From Styela clava (taxonomy: Eukaryota): a stretch of DNA of 64,000 nucleotides. Within the stretch, counting starts at the first letter, position 1. Every line of letters starts with the position of its first letter. Below, in pieces: positions 110-32,709 of this stretch. The position numbers and the translations under genes were made by a program. The notes beneath the pieces were generated by a model. That model ran no database searches and was not told the DNA's origin. It saw only the letters and a program-made list of their open reading frames with translations. Where the stretch lies: contig NC_135250.1 of the NCBI RefSeq assembly GCF_964204865.1, positions 7,750,001-7,814,000 on the forward strand. Direction: 5' to 3'.

Positions 110-3100
110 GTGCATAAACTCCGGGCGTAGCTTTCATCAGTGCAGGTCACCGTACCTCCAACTACTCGACCTCTATTTCTGCATTGCTGCCCTGTGATGG
201 TTTAATAAAATATATAGATTTTCATATCAAACAATTTAGCATTATTAAAGAGGGTGGGTTATGTTAACTTATGTACGCCAACTTGTACCTTTCCAAAATG
301 CGAAACTTGGCTAAATGTCAAAGTGTGGGTATATCTATATCACAAAAGTGTTCACTTGGAACGATTCATAAAATATAGGAATGCTTTCTGTCGCAATCTG
401 ACCCTAAATTTCCTACCAGACCCACAGTAGCGACAGAAGTAAACAAGAGAGCAATCAACAGCAAATTTCTGCGTGAAATATCGGGTCGCTTCATGTCGAG
501 TAAATGATTGGATGAAAAAAATTGAAAATACAAATTTTAAACGAATAAAACGACATTCACAATCTTACTCTGGCAAGCAGCAAGTGGTGCACTCCATTCT
601 CCCGAGTCTAAACATATGCTAACTGGTGTGTTGATTATTGTCCTGAAAAGTTCACACTCGACCCTAATAAAAGAAAAGCGTATGACATGGAGTATATATT
701 AATGTTTACCGGTTTAACCTTTCAGTTTTCACCAACATTTACTTAACACACTTACGTGCATATGCTTTTTGCTAAATTTCCATTCGTGCATTTTACTGTA
801 CCACCTTCCACAGTTCCTCGAGGTTCACAAACTATTTCTGAAAACGGACAGTGAAAATGACAGTTACTGAATCATTAGCGACATAAAACCTGCCCTTTTC
901 ATTGAAAGATTTTTTTGTAGTTATGGCCTAATATTGAAAAGAAATCGATGATGTATTTTAATAGTAGCCTTCCAGAAAATGTTCCACGTAATAGATACAC
1001 TTAGCCTGACACAATTGTCCATTGAGCATTGCAGAATAACACTATACGAAACCTCAAAAAAAAAATTAAATGCTAAAATTGTCAGATTTATCCTCGAAAC
1101 GAACAAGATTACTTACGTTCACATTCCGGCAGTGGATTGCTCCATTCCGTAGAATCTAAGCAAGTGCTTGACGATTCACCAGATAATCTTCGTCCTTTAT
1201 TGCATCTCGCTCTGCAGGAAATCCGCCAAATAAATATATTCGTACAATAAGTCTCCATTCGATTTACAAAGCTTTCTCACTATACTTAACATCACCTTAC
1301 TTACCTACAATTACTAGCAACAAAATTTCTGTTCGTGCACGTAACGTATCCATGTTCAAGTGGTCCCCGAGGTCGGCATTCTAATTCTGTTGAACGAATA
1401 AAAGCATGTGTATACGTAACAATATATGGGGATAATTTTGATCCACTTGGTTTTTGCACTCATTGTGCCGCATGTAGGTCATGTACGTTTTCTATTTTTT
1501 AACGCGACTCATTGGTTTACGCCAGTGGTCTACAACACGCGGGCCGCATGCGGCCCGCCAGGCATTTTTTTGCGGCCCGCGTCATCGTTGGGATTTTTCC
1601 ACAAAAACTATAGTAGTACAACTAATGTCAACTATTAGTAAGTTTTATCGTGATATTTCTCATCAAGAATCCGGTCCGACTGTGAAAAGTGAAGCAAAAA
1701 TTTCCCGCCCATTATCCATTTTCATGTTTTATTCTATGGTTATAATTCAATTATAAATTCAATAATTTCATTTCGCATGTTCATTGTGACGTAATAAACG
1801 AGTTTCGGTCAGTCCATTGTGCCCGAGAAAGGTTTACAAAGCCAATCGCACATTCACGTCGTATACATGCGATGTTTGGCAGTTCTTATATTAGCGAGCA
1901 GTTTTTTTTCCAAGTATGAAAGTTAGCCCTCCGCACTGGACTAACGGACGAGCATTTGCATGTTGTCTTAAGACTAGCAACCCAACGCAAAATAAGGCCA
2001 AACATCGAAACCAAATATCCAGCACAAGTAAATAAATATGCTTCATGGTTCGTTTGCTGTAAGATTGAAGTGTAATTTCAACACAGTACATTCAGATACC
2101 CATTTTTGTATCTATGTTCTTGGTTTGCGGCCCGCGTGGTCAATAAATTCCAAAAAGTGGCCCGCGACATGTTTTGAGTTGAAGACACCTGGCTTAGTTT
2201 CGTATGCCATTTAAACGTCATACGTAATAACATATTATTGTGTTTCTAAAATATTAAATCATTTGAAAGTATCAAATACATTTAATTATTCCAATAAATT
2301 CTTCTTCTCTACTTCGAGAGGATATTAATATTGCGTTCTGAATGAATAAATAAATTTTGAATGAATTCCTCTTAATTGGAATGATGAGTAGTTCAATTTA
2401 ACCATTGCTGTTACACCTATATGTGATGAACTTTGTGATTATCAGCTATATGTTGTCTAAATTGCAATGTAATTTCACTGACACGACGATCTGCTTAGCT
2501 ATAATATCTTCTTGTTGGCAATGTTCGGCCACGTAGAATTTAACAAATGCTCTTACTACGGACAATTTTACATCCTTGTCTGGACAAGAATGGTATTGAG
2601 ACAAAGCGAAATAAACTCGATGCAGGTGAATGTATATCTACGAACAGTTGGGCAAACTTGAAACATTGATATGTTCGTTTAAAAATCGTGGCTCAACTAT
2701 GATTCGAACTAGCTTGAAATCTGAAGACCGTTGCATTGCTAGCTTTACGCTTGTTTTGGAAAATATGCTGACAAGGTTTGTGACATGACGTAATAAATTA
2801 CACTAATTAATCGTGAGTCTAGACGCAAGGGACGTTGACGTATTTTTGTTTATATTTTCACATGCAATTAACAAAGTCTATTATTTGCAGTAGAAATTTG
2901 CATTCTATCCCGAAATTCAAATTTGCAAAGGTTTCGATCATTTAAGCACTACATGACAATCACTTTTTGAATAATTATATAATTAGAAAAATATATTGAT
3001 CAACTTACTTCTACATGCTGGCAACGAAAAGTCCCATTCTCCTTCCGATGAGCATGTGCTTTGCGCTTCTCCGACCATGAAATGCCCAGAATTACATTCA

Positions 3101-6100
3101 GCTCTATAATTTAAAAAGGGATATTTGCAGGCTTGTCCATGGGACATATTTTCGGTCCCATTCCCATCCCATAGCAATTATGCTTGTCCCATCCCATGGG
3201 ATTCACATTGAAATGAAATTTGTTAAATTTAGGTTTAGCGTCCACTATTTAGGACTACATGCACGAAGAGACATGCAAAACAACAAAATTTACGGACTTT
3301 ATAAACTTTATATCCATAACTTCTATATACATGTGCTAGAGCTAAGATCTGAAGCCCGAGCCCGACTCGACATTTCGGGTCGGGTCGGGCCTGAAATGCC
3401 AATCATTACGTTCGGGTCGGGTCGGGCTTCTCTATCGCTGACTTTTTTTGAAATAAATACTTAAACTATGTGTGGATACTAAACAAAGGAATACCTGTTA
3501 TAAAGGAAATAATTCGAATAAAACAAAGAAGAAGCTGTAATGGACCTTTCCTCGACCTTTAACCCCCGAAAATATTCTTCCTATACTTTACCATGCTCGG
3601 GTCGGGTCGGGCCTGCAAATCCAGTTTATTAGGCGGGCTCGAGAATGGTCGGGTTCAATACCCACGGGCCCCCGTCGGGTCGGGCCTGCGAATCCAGTTA
3701 AATTAGTCGGGCTCGGGTCGGGTCTGGTTTAATACCCACGGGCCCGGGTCGGGTCGGGCTGGAATTTTTTGGGCCGATCTTACCTCTAACATGTGGCCAT
3801 CAGACCCTTCACGAAGTATATTGTTAATGCTGCATATATTTTGCTTTTTATAACCGACAAGAGAGCTCTGCTCAAATGTATGCCCACGAAGTCGATAACA
3901 AAATGTTTTACCATCATTTTCCCGAGAATCATACGGTTTTCCTGTCCCATGGGATTTACAATTGTGTGCTATCCCATCCCATGGGAATACCATGGACAAC
4001 CCTGGATATTTGTAAAATTTATCTATATCTAATGAAGTCGCTATAGCTTTTCGTTATTTAACTGTTTCGGCCTCCAATTTTAAGTCGTAAAATGGCTCAT
4101 AATGATTAGATTGGAATATAAATCTATTCATTCATTAATGATTCGGTCTTTATTATGAGTTTGTTTGCTAAACCATGGCCATTTGAAGTTGAGCCATGCT
4201 GCTGTTTATCAGTATTATTTCAATTTCCTACTTGTAGCTTTTATATCACGATTTATAAAATGTACCTTTTAAAAGAAAGTTCATCTCTTAGTTCTCTCAT
4301 CACATTACATTGACAATAATGAATAAATAAATAGTTGATTCAAATATCAATACTGTACATATATATATATATATATTCATATATATAAATACACAGCAGA
4401 TAAATCAGTAATCACCTGCATATACTTTTAGTGAAAGATCCCATTGAACATCCTACTTTCCCAAACATAATGAAGCCTCTTGGCGGACACATTATTCCTA
4501 AAAAAATAGAACATCCATCAAGATTCAGGTTCAATTCATATAAATATACATGAGTTGCTTCTGTAACGATGTATCGAAAACGTTTAACAAATAAAAACCT
4601 CTGCATGGCTGTCTTTGCATTTGTTTTGCAGGTTGTTCACGTATGATCGAATAGGACTTTCCGATGTTCAGAACAGATAATTCAAAACAATATTAATCAC
4701 ATCCGATTTCGATTAGCTATTTACTTTTTCAATTACTGCATATGCAAATCAATTTGTCGTAAACACAAAAGAATAAAAAAATTTGGCATGTACGATCAAT
4801 AATAGATTTATCATTCATAAGATGAAAACGAACAAAAAGTGGGAATTATCATAAATCAATCTACTAAAATCTTGTCACGATTCAATAATAGTGCATGCCA
4901 ATGTTATCGGAAGTAAGTTTCTTGAGTATTAATCATAACAATCCTATTTAACTTTTATTACGTAAGATTGCTCAAATCGAAGCAAAGTCACGAACATCAG
5001 AAACATTGACGATAGCAAAGTGGCGAGTGTCCAATAACACACTTACTGCTACGTATTGAAGTCATGGCTCAGGAACATTATTTGAACTGAGTTCAGTTCA
5101 AACCCTCACTTGCTTATGATGTAAATGTATATAGTATACCGTGAATTGCAAATACCTAAATTATTTTACAATTTGAACTATTATAATGAGTTTACTTAGA
5201 CACATTGGCAAAGGACTACTCCATTTTCCATCGATTTGACAAATTGATGTAGAGTCTCCTCGCATTCGATAATCCCTGTTACACTTATACCTGATTTAAA
5301 TGAAAAATATAAAATTATCAAACCAATAATGATTAAATATGTAACTAAACGGCTTATTGAAATTTGTCCATGGGCATGAAACAAATTAAATATTTCAATA
5401 TATAAAAATGCAATCACATCAAACATCAACAACAGGCTGATGAGCGTCGATATGCTTGAAATTAATCCCTCCCACGGTCAAGTCAAGCTTATAAATCTAT
5501 CAAGTAATGATATTAATACTAACCGACAAATACTGTTTGCTGTTGTTCCTTTATTGCATGTTGTTGACCCGTGCAAGACTCTAGGTCTTTTTGGACAACT
5601 GATTTCTTAAAATAAATAAAAAGTTCGTGATAATATTTAGAAAAAATATATTTTGATTTTCAAAACCGCAATAGGTATAGTTTTTATATTTGTGCCAAGC
5701 TTTGTATTACCAAGAATGGTTATTGTAAAGTGGTGTTTAAATATATTCAATGAAAATATTGAAAATAAAATATAATTTTTTCTCAACAATTTAATTTTTG
5801 GTCCAGACAGCTACTCAATCAGGTATCCCAAAACAACTGTACATCTGATTGTTAATCGGAAAATCAATTGAAGTGACTGGCCGCTATGAAAACGAGGCAA
5901 TTCCATTTATACCAACCTTCACACACTGGCATCTTATGGCTCCACTTTCCATTTTCCTGGCAATGGCGTTCATTTAAACCTTTCATCGTTCTGTCCGGGT
6001 CGCATGTGAACCTAATAGAAGGCAAACGTTACAAATGTGGGACAGTAGTTGACTGATTGGCGCTAAATGTATTAATAGATATTGATAACGACCAATTATG

Positions 6101-9100
6101 AAGCTATTCCAATAAATTTTATAGCTTTTCGACTCAATTGTATAATAATTAATTGACCTGCATCTACTTTGTACTCTTCTCCCGTCACTGCATTCAGCAT
6201 TCCCGCCGATCAGTTTGTCAGAAATTGGACAAAGAATTGCTATAATATGTATGTATTGCTTATAATAATACATGCATTGAAAGAACATTAAATTTGTAGA
6301 TTCCATTTTCAATTCTGTTCAAAATAGTAGCATCAAGAAAAAGAGATTCTGAGCTATTTATGATATAAATAGCACAAAGTCCAGCAAATTCCAAAAATGA
6401 AATATTTGGCATGTGGAGGCATTTAATATGAGCGAAAGAGATTCCATATTGTTAGTGATAATATGAAATAAAACTTTTCACTTACGAACACAAAATGGTG
6501 GCCGCAAAGTCCACAATCCATACATTGTACATGTACTTTGTCTAAAACCTCGTAAAATATATCCTGGTCTACACTGTGCTCTGAATAAAATTGTATATGA
6601 AAGTGAGTACTTTTTGTTTATTTTATTTATATTAAGTGGGTACAAAATTTCCAATCGACATGTAAAAGGTCTTACATTACACAAATGTTATTGTGGCAGA
6701 ATTCAAGCAAACTTGGGTAATATATAAAAAATGATTTCATACGAACACGAATTTTGTTTGGAGTTCAGAATATTATTCGTACAAAAATACGCTACGATGG
6801 TTCACATACACTCACCGGCATTTGCTACCTGCAAAGTTTCCCTTTGTGCATGAATACCATCCGTTTCTTATATTAATTCGTTGACGGCATATAACATCTT
6901 AAATAAAAATTAAGTAGCCTATTCAAAATTTGTATTTTCAAACTGGCGTTTTTTATATTAAATTTCTGTGGCATATCTGGAAGTATTTAATAGTAATAAT
7001 GTTTTGCATCACAAACTGTTTTTATACTTTTTGTAAAAATTGACATATAGCGCCAATATGCTCCATTTGGGATCTGCTACTGTCTTTTCTTAGATTATTA
7101 GAAATAATATAAATGACCTATTTTTCTAGTTTCGTGAAAGTCAGACATTTATCCAACTTAAAGGGGGTAGTTGAAGAAGAATAGTTGAGAACCACATAGC
7201 ATACCAATACATGAATTTTTGAAGAAATTTACTTACCCCCGCAGCGCGCAAACGGATGACTCCAGTATCCATTCGACTTGCAATAATTTGTTTTCGTTCC
7301 GACCAATCTAGTGCCAGAGTTACATGTTGTGCTATAGCAAAAGTATAGGATAGATGTGATTACTTTGAATAATATTATAATTTCAATTTGCTTTAGCCAT
7401 AGCATACCTACATTGGCTGCCCGGTAGTCTCCCGTTTGAGCAAGAAATCATCCCTCGGTGAACGTAGTTTGGCGGATTAGGGCACATCACTTGTCCTAAA
7501 GTGAATGTTAAAAAGTAAGAAATTGTCTTTAATCAAAGTTTTGACGAAATGTGGAATGATTACAAAGTGTACTATCGTGTCCCACACTTGTCCTACTTAA
7601 CCCGCTTGTTCTGCCAAAGTATTACATCTATCCTAACTAAGAGCATAATTCACATATGCATACTTTAACCATTTGCTTCACAATAAATGTCTAACCCCAT
7701 TTCAGGACAATGGGACAAGCGCTAATGAGGGGACAAGTAGAACGTGATATTGTTGAGATACTGTGATAGCAGATTCACAACCAATGCCGCGCTACGAGCA
7801 ACATAAAAGTTCATGCTTACAAAAGGAACAATTCAGGCCAATATTATCAGAAAATATTTAATCGATCAATTATGAAATCAAATTTGACGTAATGCATTTT
7901 CATTTCTATTACAGTGAGAATACACAGAAGTCACTGTTGTATTGGCGGAAAGCCATGCAATGGTGATAACAACTGATTTAGGTCACAAAAAAAGAACATA
8001 GAAAAATAGCAAATATCCAATATTACCAAAACATTGCTCTCTGGCAATATTACACATGCTTGTAAAGCAGCAGCAACGACACACGGAGTTTCTTTCATAT
8101 GGATTGCATTGTGTGGGTTTCCAAGCGTCTCTTAGATTCTGTCAGTAATATATGTTGGATTAAATCACTACTATTAGGCAAACATGCTGTGACATTCGCT
8201 GAAAATCAATACATTGAGAGTAGCAGTCGACATACCTGAACGTGATTATTCTCACACGCCCTTGATTCCTTGCATTGCTTGAAAATTAATAATCCACCAC
8301 CCCATCCTCCATGATTACGAAGTTCGATTTCACAAGCGTCCTATCAACACAAAAAACTTAGTATGTATATATAATATAAATTGCAAACAGAAGAGTTACC
8401 CAAAGACCTCCAATGACAAAGAATCATCACTGAAGGTCTGTCGATAACCCTTCGTTCGGGCTATTTTTTTTTTATTATCAGTGATTACCGAAAACAATTT
8501 AACTTTTTAAAAATAGTGCAAATATATTTTGTACCTGTCGATATCCACATGTTCTAATTCTCCCAGTTGCACGACATTCTTGATCGGAACGAACACCAGA
8601 GCATTCCAAGCAAGTGATACCTAAATCGAAAGTAAGGCATGTTTGTAGAGACATAAATTTGTGAACAAAAATTGTTTTCATCTGGTTTGTATACGTTTTA
8701 AAACTGCAAAAGTACCCATGTTGGGCAATAGGATCAGTTAAGATCCAATCTCTCGTTTTGTATTTTCATTCTCTCGCTTTGAAGACGGACGTGTCTTTAT
8801 TAACAAGCAGTTACCTTCATCTGCAGAGCTAACTTTGTCTAATCCATGACCCATATCCCCAATTAGGGAGAATAGTGTGCGAGAACAGAAAATAGTGAAA
8901 CGGGAGTTGGATACCGAATTGTTTTGGCCCCAGTAATTCACTCAAGTCGACCTTATATTTCGCTTGACTTACATTTTACTCCCATCCAGTATTTACCAAT
9001 TCCGATTTGTTATCAAGATATAAAGAAAAATGTTTTAACAGAAATTAAGATTTTTACAAATATTTCCAGGAAACAAACGCTTAATTTGTGACAGAGAAGC

Positions 9101-16763: not shown

Positions 16764-18921
16764 ATGGCCAACAAGGGATTCGCGTATGGCATGAGCGCTC
16801 AGGTCGCTAAAAAGGTAGGTATATTTTTTTGAAAAGTTCCTAGTTAAATTTGTACCATCTCTTTTACACATGACAGTCAATACTTGAACAATCTATGGCA
16901 AGTGGAATTGCTTATGTGATGATATGATGTGACGATTTCCTCCAATATTCCTACCATAGTCGTGAAAAATGATTTCAAACAAAATTTGTTAAACAAACAA
17001 AATGTTTTGTACTAGTCCAAGTGGGGCGATTTTAAGTTAATTTGATGTATATATATTCAATTTCTACATGAGCTGTAAAGGTTTCTGAGGTATTTGTATT
17101 TTAAATTCTTCTGGTTGTTGTTATATTATTACACAGTGTGTAGGTTGAAATAACCAATAGATTCCTGGTCAAATACAAGGCAAGGGTGAACAAATACCTT
17201 GGATTCGTGTCACTCCTGATCAAAGAATCAACAGTAAACGCAGAAATATAATAAAGTAGAAAGCAAAGCTATTGCTTATGTTGATAGTTGTTACGGAAAT
17301 TAAACCTTATTTAAATGAGTTGTACACATGTTTACACTTAAAGCACGACGTAAATAGGCAAATTTTATAAAGATAGTAAGATACAAGACTATATAAAAAT
17401 GAAGAAGCTCTGTTCATTTACTTCATAACCCTTTTTACCTAGATTGCTGGAAAGCGCGATACGGATGCGGAAGCCAAAGTGCAGCATTTTATTGAGACAA
17501 TCACTGGTCAATCTTTCGATTCTTCCAAAAGCTACGAGGAGAATCTTCATGATGGCCAACTCATATGCCAGTAAGCAATCCATATGTATTATCTCTTAAT
17601 TTTAAATTCAGTTAGTACAACCCTAGTTCAGTGTTAGGTAGAACCTTAGACGCAAGTCCAATCGAGTCAAGTACATCACTGAGTTAAGTCTCACTGGTGG
17701 TCAGTTGATGGCGAGTGACGTTTTTGGTAAATGGTCACCCGGGTTCAACTTGAGCCGTGTCAATCATTCTAGCCTCTCCAAATCAGGTAAAGCCAGGCAA
17801 AGCTTTTTTCTGGAATCCTATCATTCATTTAGTGTTTATTGTTTTTTCCAATGTGATTTACAATCAACATTTTCAACAGCTTGGCCAACAAATTGAAACC
17901 AAAATCAGTTAAGAAGATCCAAGAAAGCACAATGCCATTCAAAAAGGTAAGTATATCATTGTGATAAACGAGTGTTATTCTACCGGAAAATGAGATCGGG
18001 GTCTCAGTTAACATATTGTCACATTTTGTCACAGTTATCTTTATATATGGATGAGAGGCTTCAAATAAGTTAAAAGTGCAACATACTAGTTTATATATAT
18101 ATTTTTCTTACTTTATAATTTTTTTGTTTTTTTAGTTTTATTCTATTACTGAAAATCCACTGAATGTCAATTATAGGTGCATTTTAGCTCCGAAAGAAAA
18201 ATAAAATTTGTACTACTTTAGAATATTTAGTTCAAATGGTACAAAATAAGGTCAAGGCGGTTGAAATTGGCTACCACACTACAATAAACGGTTTTCAATC
18301 CGATTTCTCTAACTGGGGAAGGCATAAAGACTTGTTGTTCAATATATAATTTTTCAATAAGATGAGATTGCTCAATGGCTCAAACAGCATAAAAGTAATT
18401 ATTATTTGACTTCAGATGGAGAACATCGAAAACTTTTTGAAATTCGCCCAGGACTATGGTGTCCCAAAAGGCGACTTGTTTCAAACAGTTGATCTGTACG
18501 AAACCTCGAATATTCCTGCTTTCACTGCAACAATGGTCGCCCTTGGTCGCGCGGTAAGTAAAGTTTATATTTTCTGTGATTTGTTTGACTGTGGTAATGT
18601 GAATTGCCCCCCATACTGAAGATGTGAGATCACACTGTACTGTCATCACGCCAGAATGGATATATTGTACTTCAATTATAGTGATGGCTCATAGCAAATT
18701 GTTCTTTTCAGTGCCAACTGAAACCAGAATGGGATTCATCATCTTCCTCCTACCAAAAGGATTGGCCCGTTCTCGGACCCAAACCCTCGATTGAAAACAA
18801 ACGTGAATTTGACGAGAAAACTATCGCTGAAGGCAAAAATATTATCGGAATACAAGCCGGAACCAACAAAATGGCTAGCCAAGCTGGCCAGTCTTTTGGA
18901 GCAAGAAGACAAATCAATTAA
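16764..18921 (+). CDS. Myophilin / transgelin / muscle protein 20-like (calponin-homology domain + one calponin repeat), 197 aa
   Basis: Exons 16764-16814 (MANKGFAYGMSAQVAKK), 17443-17570, 17880-17946, 18416-18553 (MENIENFLKFAQDYGVPKGDLFQTVDLYE) and 18712-18921 (IIGIQAGTNKMASQAGQSFGARRQI). Total 594 nt, all GT-AG, phases consistent; AATAAA downstream. Confidence 0.95.
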
Positions 18922-25367: not shown

Positions 25368-28300
25368 TCAATGTTCAGGTTGCAGCGACTCCTTTCTTAC
25401 TAATTCCAATACTCTGTCCGGCAACTTGCTCTTTATATTTCCTCCTTTTTCTTTTAATTTTTCATGATATTGTAACCACATTTGTCTTCTCTTGTTCACA
25501 GTTTCAGCGAATTCAACGCCCGCTTTCCTTGCTTTCTTCAATTGCTTCACCTGAGTAAACAATAAAAATAAGTTACAACGCGATAACGTATTTGTGAGGT
25601 TTATTTTTGTTGAGCGCGAATCTAGCATTTCCAACACATATCGACCCAAATGTTTTTACCCATCTGTCACAAAATTGTTTTCACGAAAAAAATAATTTTA
25701 GGTGTGGCGGAACGCCTTAGTTTAGGTATTACTTGAGAGAAATCGCAAAAAGATTTCGAGGTATTTCCACAGTTTTTTTACCGACGGCGCAGCAACTATT
25801 CAAAATCTGATTTTGTGACAGTAAATTGATATTTTTCATGTTAAATTGTATAAGTCCATTCGTGGTTATTATACGTGACCCTAAACCTGATAGTATTTGA
25901 CCAAAAAATTTTAATTCGGATTGTAAGAATACAATAAAGACGCTGCTTCTATGAAAGGAACGAATTTCTCACCAAAATTTCGTCTTCGATTTCTTTCGTT
26001 TTTGCTCTTATTTCAAACCACCACTTCCACTGCAAAAGAGCTGCCCCATTTACATCCACGAGACTGCCTTTACATACATAACATCCAGGGTTTCGAAGAA
26101 TTCCGGTTATTGGAGATTTGATGTGTAATATTCCATCACCATTTTTAACAACCTCATTCATGTTCTTGTACGTTTTAGGCATAATTTTGGCTACACTTGC
26201 TGCATCAGAAGTATTGAGAAGTTTGACACGATCTAGGAAATAACATTAAAATTTATAGGCTCCAATATTGGACTTTTTTAGCTATCTATGAAGATCTTGA
26301 AGATGAATTTAGGGAGAATTTACTAGAACTTACTAGAGTAAACATTTCCTAGTGTATCCCATGTCCCCATTTCCTCAATATTTGCATGAACTTTTTCCTG
26401 TATGATTGCTCTAGAAATGAAATATAGGATTAGTTGAGTAATTCGATGCATTGTACGGAAGTATTAAGGCAACTTAAGCTTATAGACGTACTTTAACGAT
26501 GACATAGAACATATTTTGTTTCCATAAATTATGCAATTGAGATATGTTTAATTACAGTTATACTTTCAATTAATCACCAACGCAAGTAGAGTCTAATAAC
26601 AGTACAGATGAGCTACATTAAAAACAAAGCCTGTTTTGAAACTATGGTTTTTTCATTTAGTTACCCGTGACATAATCTCACCTGTGGGCGGTCATTATAT
26701 CTGAATTATAGTACAAAGTTGTGTTAATGTCGTAGAATATCTTTATTCTAAATTCAACAAAGTATGCGGGAGACGGACCTGAAATGAGTAAATTTGTTAC
26801 ATAAACAAAACCTGTTAAATACCAATCAAATTATAAGCATTGCTAGTCCTAAATGCGGGGTATTTAGATTAGAAGTACGCTTTGAGTCTGGGACGAAGCG
26901 TATTTATTGGTTACCAGTAGACTGGATAGTAATGAGTGGCAAAGTTGTTTGAATAGATATAAATTCAAGCCGCGACCAAGTATACGCCAAGCATGAACTA
27001 ACGGTTTTATATAATTTAAACTACTTGTTTCTACTATCTCGTCTTTCGAATATACATATCAACTTAGTTTTGACTTAAAATATATTTTTTTATTTTCTGC
27101 ACACTTTTCTATTGTATTTTAATGACAGTCAATATCATTTTAACCGTATCTGCTTTTCTTATTTTTACACAGCCAATGAAGAAACACAAGACATTTGGCA
27201 ACCCACGGTGATGTACTTATACCGCCCTGTTTTTTTTTAGTTCAATAATCATGACAGTCAAAAGTTATCTGATGCTATTGACAGATAACACATGCTGAGA
27301 AATTTTATGACAAAAAGACAGGGGTCAAAGCAGTATATATATATATATATTAAGTACGAGTCGGGCCTAGTAGAAGTTCCCATGCAACATTACTCCTGAG
27401 GCCTGGCCTGGATCACGGTAAATAGCGTGTGTATTGCCATCGTTAGGAGATAGTTTTGCTCGATTCTGACACTCTACAGTCTACATAATATTGAAGGCCT
27501 ATACAAATGCCTATTTGTCTAAATTCAGGCGGATTATCCTGCATTTGTCCAAGGCCTAGATGTTAAGGCATTCATTGTATTTCTATAGTTTACCAATAAA
27601 TCAAATAACTCAACAGTGTGTCTTATGTCTCTATTTGCTATACTCAAAACTTTTGTTCAATCTGGAGAATTGCTGCAATAATTCGCTAACAAACGACTGC
27701 ATGCGATTAACGAAATAGCAACTTACCTTTTTCAGCGTCACCCACCATTACAATAGGCTTAACGAAAAAATTGAGGTAACTGGCTGACCCTGGGCATGAT
27801 TTAGCATGAACTGAGAGTGTTGGATGATTCTCTATGACTTCCTCTTGCTTCACCATTCCCTGTAATCAAATACGGGAATATACGAAGATATAATTCGATT
27901 TCGTCTTAACATAAATAGTAACAGCAATATATATACACAATTTGCTCGCTGCTAGGACGTTATTAAGTCGGGCTCAAGAATTGTATGCTTGTATATAAGT
28001 ATGCAATATAAGCGGACCGAATAACTAATGCAATTATATATATGTAGCCCACATGGAGTAGCCTACCGGTAAATATTAAAATACGCGGTCGTTGAGAACC
28101 CGCTGGCAGTAATTTTCTGAACCAGGATAACAAGGGTTGTACGAAAACATTAGGAAAAGGACACAACACAGGAGAACTTTATAAAGATTGCGTTCGGGAG
28201 TTGGTGTTTGAGAAACCGCCTTGACTTACCTTTAAGTAGTGGAGATTCTTTTCATGCATAAATGCAGTAGAACGCAGTGAATACCGCCCAGGCATTTGTT

Positions 28301-31300
28301 CAACAATTGATCCACAATAAGATTGCATTTCATTACAAACTTTTTCAGCCTCTTCCAAGGTTTTGTACATACGACCGTATTTGACTTTTTCCTGGAGACA
28401 AACAATAATTGTTCAAGATGAAGGCTTAGTTTATATTGTGGATGTTGCGTTTATATGTTGACACAGGGAAAATTACAACGCACAGCAAAAATTCCTTACC
28501 CGAATTCCGAGAGTCTTGTTCACTGTTTTCCCGGTAAACTTTCTATAAAAACAGTTCATCGGAGCTGGGGTAATCGGTGACATCTGCGTTCCCTTTTCCG
28601 TCTCTTGTGACGGACTTGTAAATTCAAGATCCCCAACATCTCCATATCCATAAAAACGGACTGTTGCTTTCTCTACCAAGATTGTTCCTATGTAAAAAGA
28701 GACAATTTTTCTAATTTAATTCCTGTAATGCCGCCATATTTCCTGCTTCTCTATAAATATTTGTTTCGAATTTCGAATTCATTTTACCGGTGTCTATCCG
28801 GAAGTTTCCAGCCAATTTTTTGACCAATATACCCAGTATTTTCAAGGCCCAACTCAATTTTTTACTTTACTGTAGTCGTTAGCGGAAGAGTAGACCTTAC
28901 ATAAGTGTATGCATTCGTTGTTGCTGATGTTAACAATATTACCGGAAGTATTTAGCTAGCTTCTATGTTGATAGTGTGATCACTGTTGTTGATACTAATA
29001 GAATATCGGATCGGTATATACTTATAACTCACTTATATCAATTGTCATTTTAGTCCACAATTTATGTTGACTAGTGAATTTTAATGAATAACGAATATCA
29101 CCAAGCCCGCTGTTATCTATCCCTTTCACACTCCAATGTCTTCTCCTGTCAAATTTGAATACGAAAATTGTAATAAAAACATGACATCAATCAACAATAT
29201 TATAACAATAATATTTTAAGCCTTTGTAGGTTTATGAATGCTTCCATGACAATCTCGCACAGAGTGTACAATGACACGCCAAACGGAATGATATTAAGTA
29301 TACATCCAAATGCCAATGGCTCTGCAAAGCCTATATATAAATGTTAAGAGTTTAAGAGCTTTATATATACATATACTAATTTTTATATTGCTCAATATAT
29401 ATGAGTTACGGGTAAAACATTTGTGATGAATGCTGATATGCTAAAAAGAACCTCGAGAAATTGTTTCTATTGTAAACTGGTAACTAACTTTTAGTGGAAA
29501 ACATGATTATTTTTTATTTATTCCGGACTTGTAGAATGATTACATTCATCAGATGTTTACGTTATAAGTCAATTCTGATAATATGAAACTCACGAATGAA
29601 GATAGCTGCCTATCCCATATAACGGACTAAACCACCAGGGATGTTCATGAGGAATCATTTTGTATCTTCCATATGTGGTATTGGTTGAAACAATCACCAT
29701 TTTATTACGAGCAATTCTGAAAAATAACATTTTTAGGCTTGCTTAGTCATTGGTAAAAAAGAATGCTTGAACGGATCTCCGATCTGAATCTTATCAAAGT
29801 CAAGTGGGCCAAATCCAAGAAGTACGCAGAATATTTGTATGTTCATCTACTCAAGCGTGCTTACCAAAAGGGCTGTGCTGAAAAGTTCTATCCTAACAAT
29901 AAAAAAGAGTTAGAGAGGAAAAATGTAACGCGTCTACCGTTTAGTTTGCGCTTGAAAACTTAAGATAATTTTTACCAACTATCTTGCAGATGAGCATACT
30001 GAAAAATAATTCAGACTAGCAACAATCAGGCTATTAAATATCAAAGCCATTCTATGCTTACCTCATTTCCATATCGTTATCTTCTCCACCCCATCCCCAA
30101 AAATTGTTGCTGTGTCCGTTTGCTTTTATGTAATTTTTTACAGATATTGCAGTGACTCCGCCAAATCTCGTGCCATAGTTTAGAGTGTAGTTAAATTTGT
30201 CAATAGCTTAATTAAAAAATAAAAGAACAATAATTACTTTAATGACAATACTTTTAAGATTTGGACAAGTTTAAGGTGTTTAATTTTACAAAGAAGAACG
30301 ACGCTGAAAATGCGTCATGATGTCAACTCGCTCGCTTTGTTAAGCATTCTCTTCACTGGTAAGGGTCGCAGATGAATATATAATATATTTTTGAAATAAA
30401 TTTTATCCAGTGGTAAACTGACATAACTCTTTAATCGCATTTCTCCCTCTTTACTAACAGTTCCTCATTATTTTCGTGCAAATTATATTGACATGAAATT
30501 CCGATAAAACTTGAAAGTTTAGAAAAATTTCCACTCGACAATCGCTTAATAACAAATACTTTACAAAAAAATTCCCAATAGAAATAGACGAAAATCTTTG
30601 GAGTAGGATTGAAACATAAAAACACTTGGATTCCAGAAGTCAAATGATACCCATTTAGTTCAGTTTATATCAAACGAAGCAACTGTGGAATTTTACCCGG
30701 AGAAAGATGTTTTGGCATCTTCGAACACGTGTGTAAATTTCTGTCATCTTCCACAAGCATGTCTACATCATGAAAAATGACACAATCAAAATTAATTTTT
30801 GAAAATTTTATAATTTCCAGAAAAGCTGCATTCATCACACGCGCTTTATTGAAAGCTCCATTATCAAATTGCTCAGCAACAAAAATGCAGTATCGAAGTG
30901 ATTGCCGCTGAAAAATGATGAGAATCATAAATAAATTTGGGAAAGGATGATTTCACCGCACAAGATATAAAAAAGATATGGCGAATTGCCGTTTTCTTCT
31001 TTTGTTATTCTCTGTTGTTGCTTGTCAAATGTTAGTTCGTCATGATGACTACATTTCTGTAAATTTTTGAGCATCTAATTCGTTGACATAGTTTAAATGT
31101 TAACTTCGCTGTCATAGATATCACGCTGAATCATATTTGAACTGGCTAATTTTTGAACTTTAGCATTATATATTGCAAAAATATCCAATATATTTATGGT
31201 CTATGGATTTAGCAAATAATAATCGCACCTGTAAAATAGGGTTTAGATGATTCATCAACGTAATAAGATGCTCTTTTCTATCTTTATATGGTATAATGAT

Positions 31301-32709
31301 GGCCACAGTTTGACGTGCCACGCACCAAGTAGGTTCAAAGCAACCGTTCTCCATAGTTCCGCCTGACTTCATAGCTTCATCTTCGGTAGGAGAGTATGAT
31401 GCGTTCACTTGAAGAGGACCAACTGGAGAAGAAGATTTTATTATTAAAGAACACATTTGCAATATACGACGTTTTCACGGTTTATTGAACAACCACTAGA
31501 TCCGATAGTTTAGGACTGTCGGTCTCTCAGTGTGGCATATGAAAAGGTTCTTATGCTATCATAGGCATAATAAAAAGCGGCACTATGTATCAGTCTACGT
31601 CTTATACAGAAAGGCGGAGAGAGATTAGAAACCAGAAACTGTACTACACACATACTGACACGGAACCCGCATGGGTATTTTTCAGACAGAGGAAGTTCAA
31701 CTCAAAACATGCCAAATGTAGATATACTGCAACCACAGTAAGCCTTAGTACGGTCTTTATCAACCACTGTGTACAAAAATCTCATTCAATATCAATTAAA
31801 TGATATTATTTTCTTAAAGTTAGATATATATTTTCAATACCCAATAATTTCGAATATTCTGGGCAAATGGAAAGTTTGTTCGATTCGGCGGTAGCTCGTT
31901 TGGGTGATTCCGACTCTTGAGATTTGGAACGATTTTCCGTTTCTGGTGGTTCACTTTCATATGACCTGTAGATAGGCTTCTGCTCTGATGCGTTGTCAAT
32001 GCTGTCAGGCTCAATTGTCACTTCTTCATTCTGAAATATAGTAATGAAAGTTAGTATAACAGATTGGATGATAATTTGTCCACAGAACAAATAGCAATTT
32101 TGAATTACTACTAACGCCGATCCAGAAGATGGGAAAAGAAAAACATTCCATTCAGAGGAAATGAATCACAATTTACTTTTATTTTATGGTGAACTCATTA
32201 AACGATATAAAATTTTGGAGAAATTTTCTTGCACTAAAATAAGGGATGATTACACAACGCATCCTGATACCAATCTTGAGGATAAATTGAAAGATATATG
32301 ATGCGATTTCAAATCATAACGAAAACGAAGAGGTGGAGATTTGACTTACAGAATCTGCAACAATCTTGTCGCCATATCCCTCTGTTGGAATTTCAGTGCT
32401 GGTGTATTTCCTTGTATATTCCTTCGCTTTTTCCTGTTTTTCAGTATATTTCTCCATTAGTTTTTCATCTTGAACAGTGCTTTCCGAAATATCATTGCTT
32501 TCCGAAGTCGTTTCTTGATCTTCATTTTCATCATTATTTTCTGTATTATAATCTTTTTTTATAAAATTCCGCTCTTCGTAATGATCATTTCGTATTTGAA
32601 GAAAAAGTCTGTTTTCTTTATCAGTGTTTAGGTATATTTGCATTGCAACGAGCATCAACATAGTTGTCGCAAAAATAACAATCGCAAGATGCTTAAAAAG
32701 TTTCTTCAT
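25368..32709 (-). CDS. GT7 beta-1,4-galactosyltransferase-like type II membrane protein with long C-terminal extension, 788 aa
   Basis: Fourteen phase-consistent coding exons: 32709-32350, 32030-31841, 31422-31229, 30907-30697, 30206-30062, 29716-29594, 29145-29102, 28687-28500, 28391-28230, 27859-27727, 26778-26682, 26410-26334, 26232-25973, 25550-25368 (2367 nt). N-terminal TM helix and acidic stem; motifs CPEYSKLLVGP, AIIIPYKDRKEHL, FNKA, FHDVD (DxD), FGGVTA, WGWGGEDND and YKMIPH. Confidence 0.9.

Follow-up and report, generated by a model that had tools for sequence, protein, structure and literature searches.

A GT7 glycosyltransferase gene of Styela clava with a C-terminal extension predicted to hold a PAN-like module within a RhoGDI-like sandwich

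Gene structure and expression

The gene described here lies on the minus strand of contig NC_135250.1 of Styela clava (assembly GCF_964204865.1), within a stretch of 64,000 nucleotides (nt; positions 7,750,001 to 7,814,000) that is called the window and whose numbering is used throughout. It runs from 32709 to 25368, with 14 exons bounded by GT..AG sites that join into a frame of 811 amino acids (aa) without internal stops (Table 1). The product begins with a type II anchor, followed by a GT7 domain and then an extension of 366 aa (aa 446–811); this extension is predicted to carry a PAN/apple-like module nested within a RhoGDI-like sandwich. A first, sequence-only reading had singled out 25368..28620, which is the 3' half of the gene. 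It proposed seven further exons after the one encoding RRHWSVKGIDN and a single transcript for GT7 domain and extension; the gene model bears out the first proposal and the RNA contigs described below bear out the second. Its length of ~788 aa gives way to 811 aa in the spliced frame, and FYGYGDVG, which it took for the catalytic C-terminus, lies in the extension, the GT7 domain ending at TKMTIDI (aa 445).

Five runs (X1–X5) were taken as RNA on account of GT-AG joints in their contigs. All 13 intron joints of the gene occur in X2, X3 and X5 each, and 12 of the 13 in X1; these four runs come from two studies. The listed pieces of one 2320-nt contig from X5 span exon 14 to exon 4 and bridge both halves of the gene. 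These data bear on the possibility of an artefact, in which an ordinary-length B4GALT ending in ISEL* would be followed by a separate downstream gene; read-through of the exon-7 donor would indeed meet a stop four codons on, at the usual GT7 end. The intron-7 joint, which distinguishes the fusion from this stop, is present in four of four runs, two intronless paralogues keep the whole fusion in one open reading frame (ORF) and a third does so up to a frameshift, and a 766-aa record from Clavelina is also fused. As the main form the unfused arrangement is refuted, and its probability is close to nil, although a minor short isoform may exist beside the fused one. The fused, expressed and conserved gene of GT7 domain plus tail is confirmed as real.

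The same 811-aa protein is on public record as 'uncharacterized protein LOC120338849 [Styela clava]', with two GT7 domains as its only Pfam domains. Among 17 exonic variants examined, three fall in the tail exons or the last GT7 exon (two silent, one a T/S exchange), and those in the stem are mostly replacements. Between a pair of paralogues on contig C17, dN/dS is 0.31 for the tail, 0.38 for the GT7 domain and 1.29 for the N-terminus; judged by these ratios, the tail is under purifying selection and, between these two copies, is as constrained as the catalytic domain.

Catalytic domain

The catalytic domain matches Pfam PF13733 (Glyco_transf_7N; E 2e-44, 150.7 bits against a cut-off of 27) and PF02709 (Glyco_transf_7C; E 4e-22, 78.1 bits against a cut-off of 23), and its structure model matches B4GALT1 with Z 19.4. 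The metal-loop residues M387 and H390 are retained alongside DVD and E360-D361. The roles of DxD, the xED base and the C-terminal metal His as GT7 motifs are described in PMC7185993. Since all of these residues are kept, the enzyme is likely to be catalytically active. The protein has one hydrophobic stretch, at its N-terminus, which reads as a type II topology, and residence in the Golgi is likely.

The residues expected of a B4GALT1-type UDP-Gal:GlcNAc enzyme are absent at three positions: in B4GALT1 numbering, R228 is replaced by Lys (K269), Y289 by Arg (R332) and D319 by Asn, and the acceptor loop of B4GALT1 is replaced by HEHPWWF. Asp319 (GGEDDD) has a role at the acceptor; its equivalent is Asn, Ser or Thr in nine of nine tail-bearing sequences, while of 19 other motifs from Styela 16 keep Asp. 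Across relatives, the equivalent of Y289 reads R, G, G, G, K, D, I and E. Of 21 other GT7 motifs in Styela, 11 likewise have Lys at the position of R228, and as it is so common it was rejected as a family-specific mark of a glucose donor. In the bovine enzyme, R228K shifts the preference toward glucose and Y289L toward GalNAc (PMC7185993). Because Lys228 is common among Styela GT7 proteins and position 289 is variable within the tail-bearing family, the donor sugar cannot be called; it is probably one other than plain Gal, and the altered donor and acceptor residues hint at a type of glycan linkage that B4GALT1 does not make. The label of galactosyltransferase, given in the first reading, is not established, as the Tyr289 equivalent is Arg. 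By its sequence the window protein is a member of GT7 whose identity as a B4GALT1-type galactosyltransferase is unproven.

Fold of the C-terminal extension

The tail of a C17 paralogue was modelled from 27 sequences with a predicted local distance difference test (pLDDT) of 83.7 and a predicted template modelling score (pTM) of 0.81. The model of the full window protein has a pLDDT of 71, mostly above 85 in the tail and poor in the GT7 loops. In a structure search of 48,161 chains (VIA) with the paralogue tail, RhoGDI2 is the top match (Z 9.9, 127 of 137 residues aligned); it covers residues 1–305 of the extension model, and PAN-type chains align to residues 53–158. The window protein aligns with RhoGDI over model residues 443–742 (Z 10.8, 134 of 138 residues, root-mean-square deviation (rmsd) 2.6). 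Taken together, these alignments place the start of the sandwich at the first residue of the tail and the PAN module inside it: the sandwich is predicted to be discontinuous (aa ~446–472 and ~592–740), with PAN lying between strands two and three. Both folds, and the nesting of one in the other, are predicted arrangements, and they replace the row of successive modules envisaged at first. A Foldseek search with an AlphaFold model of the tail had been proposed as a check; a structure model was run, and Foldseek ranks RhoGDI first. The helical tail seen by the first reading recurs in the structure models. Of the Ig/ML-type sandwich that it suggested, the Ig type stands; no ML-domain protein is among the matches listed in the structure searches (50 rows from VIA, and those from Foldseek) or in the profile and Pfam searches, and RhoGDI comes first instead.

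Sequence profiles point the same way. With a tail profile, RhoGDI accounts for the only non-GT7 matches in the PDB (21 of 29 rows, best E 0.053), and with a profile of the last-exon region for 21 of 21. A profile from which PAN was removed matches residues 58–188 (R58 to K188) of Styela's own RhoGDI at 17–20 bits, a score reached by none of 5000 shuffles, and HHalign gives 88.6% for this pair; the PAN part itself does not match RhoGDI. The tail of the paralogue on contig C13, without PAN, is 148 aa long and colinear with RhoGDI (0 of 2000 shuffles reach its score). By structure, the likeness to the Ig-like sandwich of RhoGDI extends over the whole domain. Styela's RhoGDI is the only match of its kind in the genome (L080:1492-2070; G000, contig C19) and has an intronless coding region. 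Two introns of the C13 paralogue seem to correspond in position and phase to introns of vertebrate RhoGDI genes, a likeness that is given no weight here. Pfam Rho_GDI (PF02115) is reached by one of 29 members, at E 0.06 and below the cut-off, and the N-terminal GTPase-binding arm is absent, the match beginning at RhoGDI residue 58; the domain is therefore RhoGDI-derived rather than a RhoGDI.

Several observations weigh against this kinship. The E-values in the PDB are weak (0.05–0.9) and concern a single stretch of 22–29 residues. The cut points for removing PAN were picked after the structure was known. With a lineage-A profile, 31 of 5000 shuffles attain the score of the N-terminal half taken by itself, and one of 5000 that of the full profile with PAN. 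In the C13 paralogue the score of 52 exceeds the best shuffle, at 51, by a single point, with the best local match in the N-terminal strands. The sandwich could also be an Ig-like domain of general type whose likeness to RhoGDI comes from convergence or from very remote kinship, an origin that would fit either function considered below; structural identity to vertebrate RhoGDI is only 10–15%, an Integrator subunit domain scores Z 8.6, and the single sub-threshold Pfam match is in keeping with it. Convergence is nevertheless an unlikely explanation: RhoGDI leads in searches by structure as well as by sequence, the domain starts and stops level with R58 and K188 of RhoGDI, and profile searches of the PDB return no other Ig-like family at E<=10. 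Descent of the sandwich from RhoGDI is considered quite probable.

Other searches of the tail were blank or nearly so. Pfam names no family for single exons or for the tail, a three-sequence tail profile yields one chance match in the PDB, Atlas feature searches are blank for the C17 paralogue tail and for aa 586–745, and all Atlas structure rows for aa 586–745 have TM <0.4. A disulfide or zinc site at C715/C718, in the PGCYVC motif, was considered and rejected, as position 718 is not conserved (C, C, C, I, M, C, T, F and V in nine sequences).

PAN module and alternative exons of a paralogue

The proposal of a PAN/apple-like module with four cysteines is supported by structure matches. The HGF N-domain aligns with Z 7.0 (78 of 91 residues, rmsd 3.6) and leech anti-platelet protein with Z 6.6, and four PAN-type chains together with mimivirus R655 align to the same segment, 53–158. 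The R655 domain in question is PDB 9crz chain B residues 237–312 (Z 6.2); should R655 prove to be a glycosyltransferase, it would represent an independent pairing of an enzyme with PAN. In Atlas, aa 488–588 yield PAN leads of 0.83–0.89 (<0.9) with TM ~0.6, and six of ten structure rows are apple-named or PAN_1-bearing clusters. C527, C534 and C584 are invariant in nine of nine sequences; the putative disulfide pairings are C491–C584 and C527–C534. PAN is the best-conserved part of the tail (41–44 identities over 93–94 positions in four of six homologues, compared with 36–50 over 148–155 for the sandwich in the same four).

The paralogue on contig C13 (G000) has two neighbouring exons (L047:4702-4173 and 3958-3345, minus strand), each encoding a PAN module and the next sandwich strand. 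Either exon alone leaves the frame intact (867 or 895 aa) and both together shift it, so that a tandem duplication within one protein was rejected. The two are 30% identical over 53 aa. Downstream (3') joints occur in RNA for the first exon in X1, X2 and X5 and for the second in X1, X2 and X4, so that exon use differs from run to run. A PAN that varies while enzyme and scaffold stay constant would suit a specificity module.

Table 1. Features of the GT7 gene, in window coordinates.
Feature	Position	Strand	Basis
Exons 1-7	32709-32350, 32030-31841, 31422-31229, 30907-30697, 30206-30062, 29716-29594, 29145-29033	(-)	
Exons 8-14	28687-28500, 28391-28230, 27859-27727, 26778-26682, 26410-26334, 26232-25973, 25550-25368	(-)	
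Exon 1: start codon, short cytosolic tail, lone hydrophobic anchor (~aa 7-27), beginning of acidic stem	32350..32709	(-)	sole hydropathy peak, windows from aa 2-11; RNA joint 32030-32350
Exon 2: disordered stem, with C176 as first cysteine of GT7	31841..32030	(-)	pLDDT <50 over aa 98-170
Exons 3-7: GT7 (B4GALT-like) GT-A catalytic domain, aa ~176-445	29033..31422	(-)	Pfam PF13733, PF02709; structure match to B4GALT1
DVD metal-binding motif, D295-D297	30761..30769	(-)	aligned to B4GALT1 via paralogue
WGGED: E360 and likely catalytic base D361, then Asn where B4GALT1 has Asp	30079..30093	(-)	
Predicted sandwich strands 1-2 (RhoGDI-like), aa 446-472, right after last GT7 strand; exon 8 begins at R446	28608..28687	(-)	structure alignment and profile match
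S/T/P-rich flexible linker, aa 473-490	28554..28607	(-)	pLDDT <50 over aa 474-485
Predicted PAN/apple-like insert C491-C584 (C491, C527, C534, C584), exons 8-10	27794..28553	(-)	structure matches, conserved Cys
Predicted rest of RhoGDI-like sandwich with helical insertions, aa 585-740, end PGCY...WKWWFEI, exons 10-13	26006..27793	(-)	structure and profiles
Exons 13-14: long C-terminal helix (aa 744-785), short tail helix, stop codon	25368..26005	(-)	structure model; RNA joint 25546-25969

Relatives and distribution

Three intronless fused paralogues lie on Styela contig C17 (G000), at L006:6247-4055, at L006:2151-421 with L005:8457-7969, and at L008:2009-4150; they are likely to be retro-derived. 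One of them carries a frameshift in this assembly. The paralogue on C13 bears introns and a tail, and a genomic fragment of similar type (P0014) also appears to be intron-bearing. A search of 1.84 billion representatives with the tail profile gave 25 matches; 20 of the 24 new ones were looked up, and every match long enough, save one, has the tail fused to the GT7 end. The species-named records are those of Clavelina lepadiformis (766 aa) and Ciona savignyi, which together with Styela represent all three ascidian orders. This distribution suggests that the tail is restricted to tunicates. BLASTP had first been proposed as a check of its spread; word-based protein searches returned Styela proteins alone and missed even the Clavelina relative, so their blanks are uninformative on range. 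The exception among the matches, protein P0027 (537 aa), has five repeats of the four-cysteine PAN variant and is otherwise unrelated; it offers a stand-alone model for the module.

Within Styela, only the C13 gene matched the tail profile among 34 stretches (~10–30 kb each) around other GT7 loci, and the 12 other GT7 ends that were located stop 3–43 residues past the last strand. A tree was built from 27 partial GT7 rows, L063 having been dropped from the original 28 as too short; the rows were projected on a profile built from the tail-bearing family and include no vertebrate sequences. In it the eight tail-bearing rows group with bootstrap 97. The GT7 family is expanded in this genome (48 exon-level matches), with tandem clusters and varied donor-site residues among the loci on C1, C3, C6, C16, C18 and C19 (L049–L077).

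Neighbouring features

A tandem array of about five 5.9-kb units, 90–98% identical, occupies 34065–64000, its near end lying 1.4 kb upstream of the gene. For seven ORFs taken from one unit, Pfam gave no match. On the other side lie a calponin/transgelin-like gene with a CH domain and a calponin repeat (18410–18918, plus strand) and exons with Sushi/CCP repeats of a complement-control-like gene (2986–7447, minus strand).

Possible function

The leading explanation is an active Golgi GT7 enzyme in which a RhoGDI-derived sandwich would carry an acceptor-selecting PAN module, a proposal whose chances are about even. By analogy with GT7 enzymology, Mn2+ and the UDP-sugar would bind at DVD and D361 would act as base in an inverting beta-1,4 transfer. 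The sandwich, continuing the last GT7 strand without a linker, may act as a stand for PAN, which could bind a glycan that the substrate already bears, possibly a sulfated one, or the surface of a protein, in the manner of the PA14 lectin of B4GALNT3, and so compensate for an acceptor loop that has diverged from that of B4GALT1. Such a substrate-targeting role of the tail, already raised in the first reading, is plausible by analogy. PAN domains have been suggested to bind protein or carbohydrate, and also mediate dimerisation (PMC9249922). Acceptor selection by PAN is supported by the swappable C13 exons, by this binding precedent and by the precedent of PA14 within GT7.

Other data speak against the proposal. 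The PAN matches are middling (Z 6.2–7.0, a range that the tool calls common), no Pfam PAN family is found at E<=10 in the 29 members, and the net charge of PAN varies from -1 to +7 across the sequences, so that a sulfated ligand is not generally indicated. The acceptor-side GT7 loops have a pLDDT <50 in the full model, which leaves PAN unplaced relative to the active site, and the RNA rows listed do not include the joint that leads into the second C13 PAN exon from upstream.

The tail might instead have no part in substrate selection: it could fold against the catalytic domain and stabilise it, or use PAN and the 40-residue helix to form dimers or complexes of Golgi enzymes. The lack of a linker between GT7 and the first sandwich strand, the compactness of the tail model (one unit, pTM 0.81), the long terminal helix in full-length homologues and the contacts and dimers mediated by other PAN domains (PMC9249922) would all suit such a role. 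It would leave the two alternative and very divergent C13 PAN exons on a constant scaffold unexplained, however, and the helix is poorly conserved (3–14 of 45 identities); a purely structural role is possible but doubtful.

Another alternative is that the sandwich keeps the RhoGDI pocket, and binds or lifts the lipid tail of a glycolipid or lipid-linked acceptor to present its head group to GT7. The tail-bearing clade is nearer L051, which we take to be B4GALT5/6-like, than the other Styela groups (bootstrap 85). RhoGDI extracts a geranylgeranyl chain into its pocket (PMC8622166), and the pocket-lining W194, L196 and I198 of RhoGDI1 (PMC9313812) align to W735, F737 and I739, three hydrophobic positions of the last strand. 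The equivalent of W194 nevertheless varies (W, W, W, F, W, Y, T, T, W) and its neighbour W736, polar in RhoGDI, is invariant in nine of nine sequences, which argues for a new outward packing rather than a retained pocket; the N-terminal arm of RhoGDI is also missing. Lipid handling of this kind is unlikely. Just as improbable is a bolder combination, in which the prenyl-extracting domain of RhoGDI would have moved from the cytosol to the Golgi lumen by gene fusion with its pocket kept and a PAN lectin inserted, so that the GT7 enzyme would grip a lipid tail while reading a glycan; in one paralogue the choice between mutually exclusive PAN exons would change its specificity.

For acceptor selection by PAN, the two natural splice forms of C13 constitute a ready experiment on the role of the module. 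The altered donor and acceptor residues matter for tunic polysaccharide synthesis, for which beta4GalT genes have been held responsible on no more than their annotation (PMC7540406, section 3.2.3).

Comparison with known systems

With B4GALT1-6 and the invertebrate beta4-GalNAcT (CAZy GT7) the window protein shares the type II anchor, the stem, the GT-A domain (32–35% structural identity, Z 18–19), DVD, WGGED and the Met/His metal loop; it differs in having the 366-aa tail, in the residues at R228 (Lys), Y289 (Arg) and D319 (Asn), and in the HEHPWWF acceptor loop. Polypeptide GalNAc transferases (ppGalNAc-Ts) carry a C-terminal lectin domain, and MGAT4, likewise a Golgi GT-A enzyme, reportedly has one as well. 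Their folds are unrelated to those of the window protein, in which one domain is predicted to nest in another and binding is putative. What they have in common with it is that a GT-A enzyme of the Golgi carries an accessory domain at its C-terminal end, as in the ricin lectin of ppGalNAc-Ts (PMC7185993).

The RhoGDI geranylgeranyl-binding domain (PF02115) shares the whole-domain structure match, the colinear sequence and the terminal hairpin G-x-Y...D...W-x-W, whereas RhoGDI is cytosolic and the window protein is predicted to be lumenal, lacks the N-terminal arm, contains PAN and helical insertions, and keeps the pocket residues in part. In tunicates, the sister group of vertebrates, a signalling domain of the cytosol has apparently been put to new use in the secretory pathway and has another domain nested within it. 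Canonical PAN domains have three disulfides, and the module, by its putative pairings, is without one of them. It also differs from PAN/apple domains (HGF N-domain, plasminogen, leech anti-platelet protein) in having no Pfam PAN match and in being inserted in another domain of an enzyme; it shares with them the fold by model (Z 6.6–7.0) and a four-cysteine core within the 4–6 described in PMC9249922.

Accessory domains are regarded as key regulators of Golgi glycosyltransferases, many of them uncharacterised (PMC13018970). The first reading had set the extension against B4GALT1-7, which end at the catalytic domain; the PA14 of B4GALNT3 shows that accessory domains are also known in GT7 (PMC13018970). 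A RhoGDI-like scaffold with a nested PAN on GT7 was not found described in the literature searched, with subscription journals largely outside its scope. In B4GALNT3/4 the GT7 domain is likewise joined to a non-catalytic module, which recognises glycans and controls how the enzyme acts on glycoproteins (PMC13018970), while the accessory folds of the window protein are a C-terminal RhoGDI-like sandwich and PAN, with no PA14 match in Pfam. The principle of accessory domains on Golgi enzymes, including PA14 within GT7, is therefore known, and it is the RhoGDI-like scaffold with its nested PAN that appears new.

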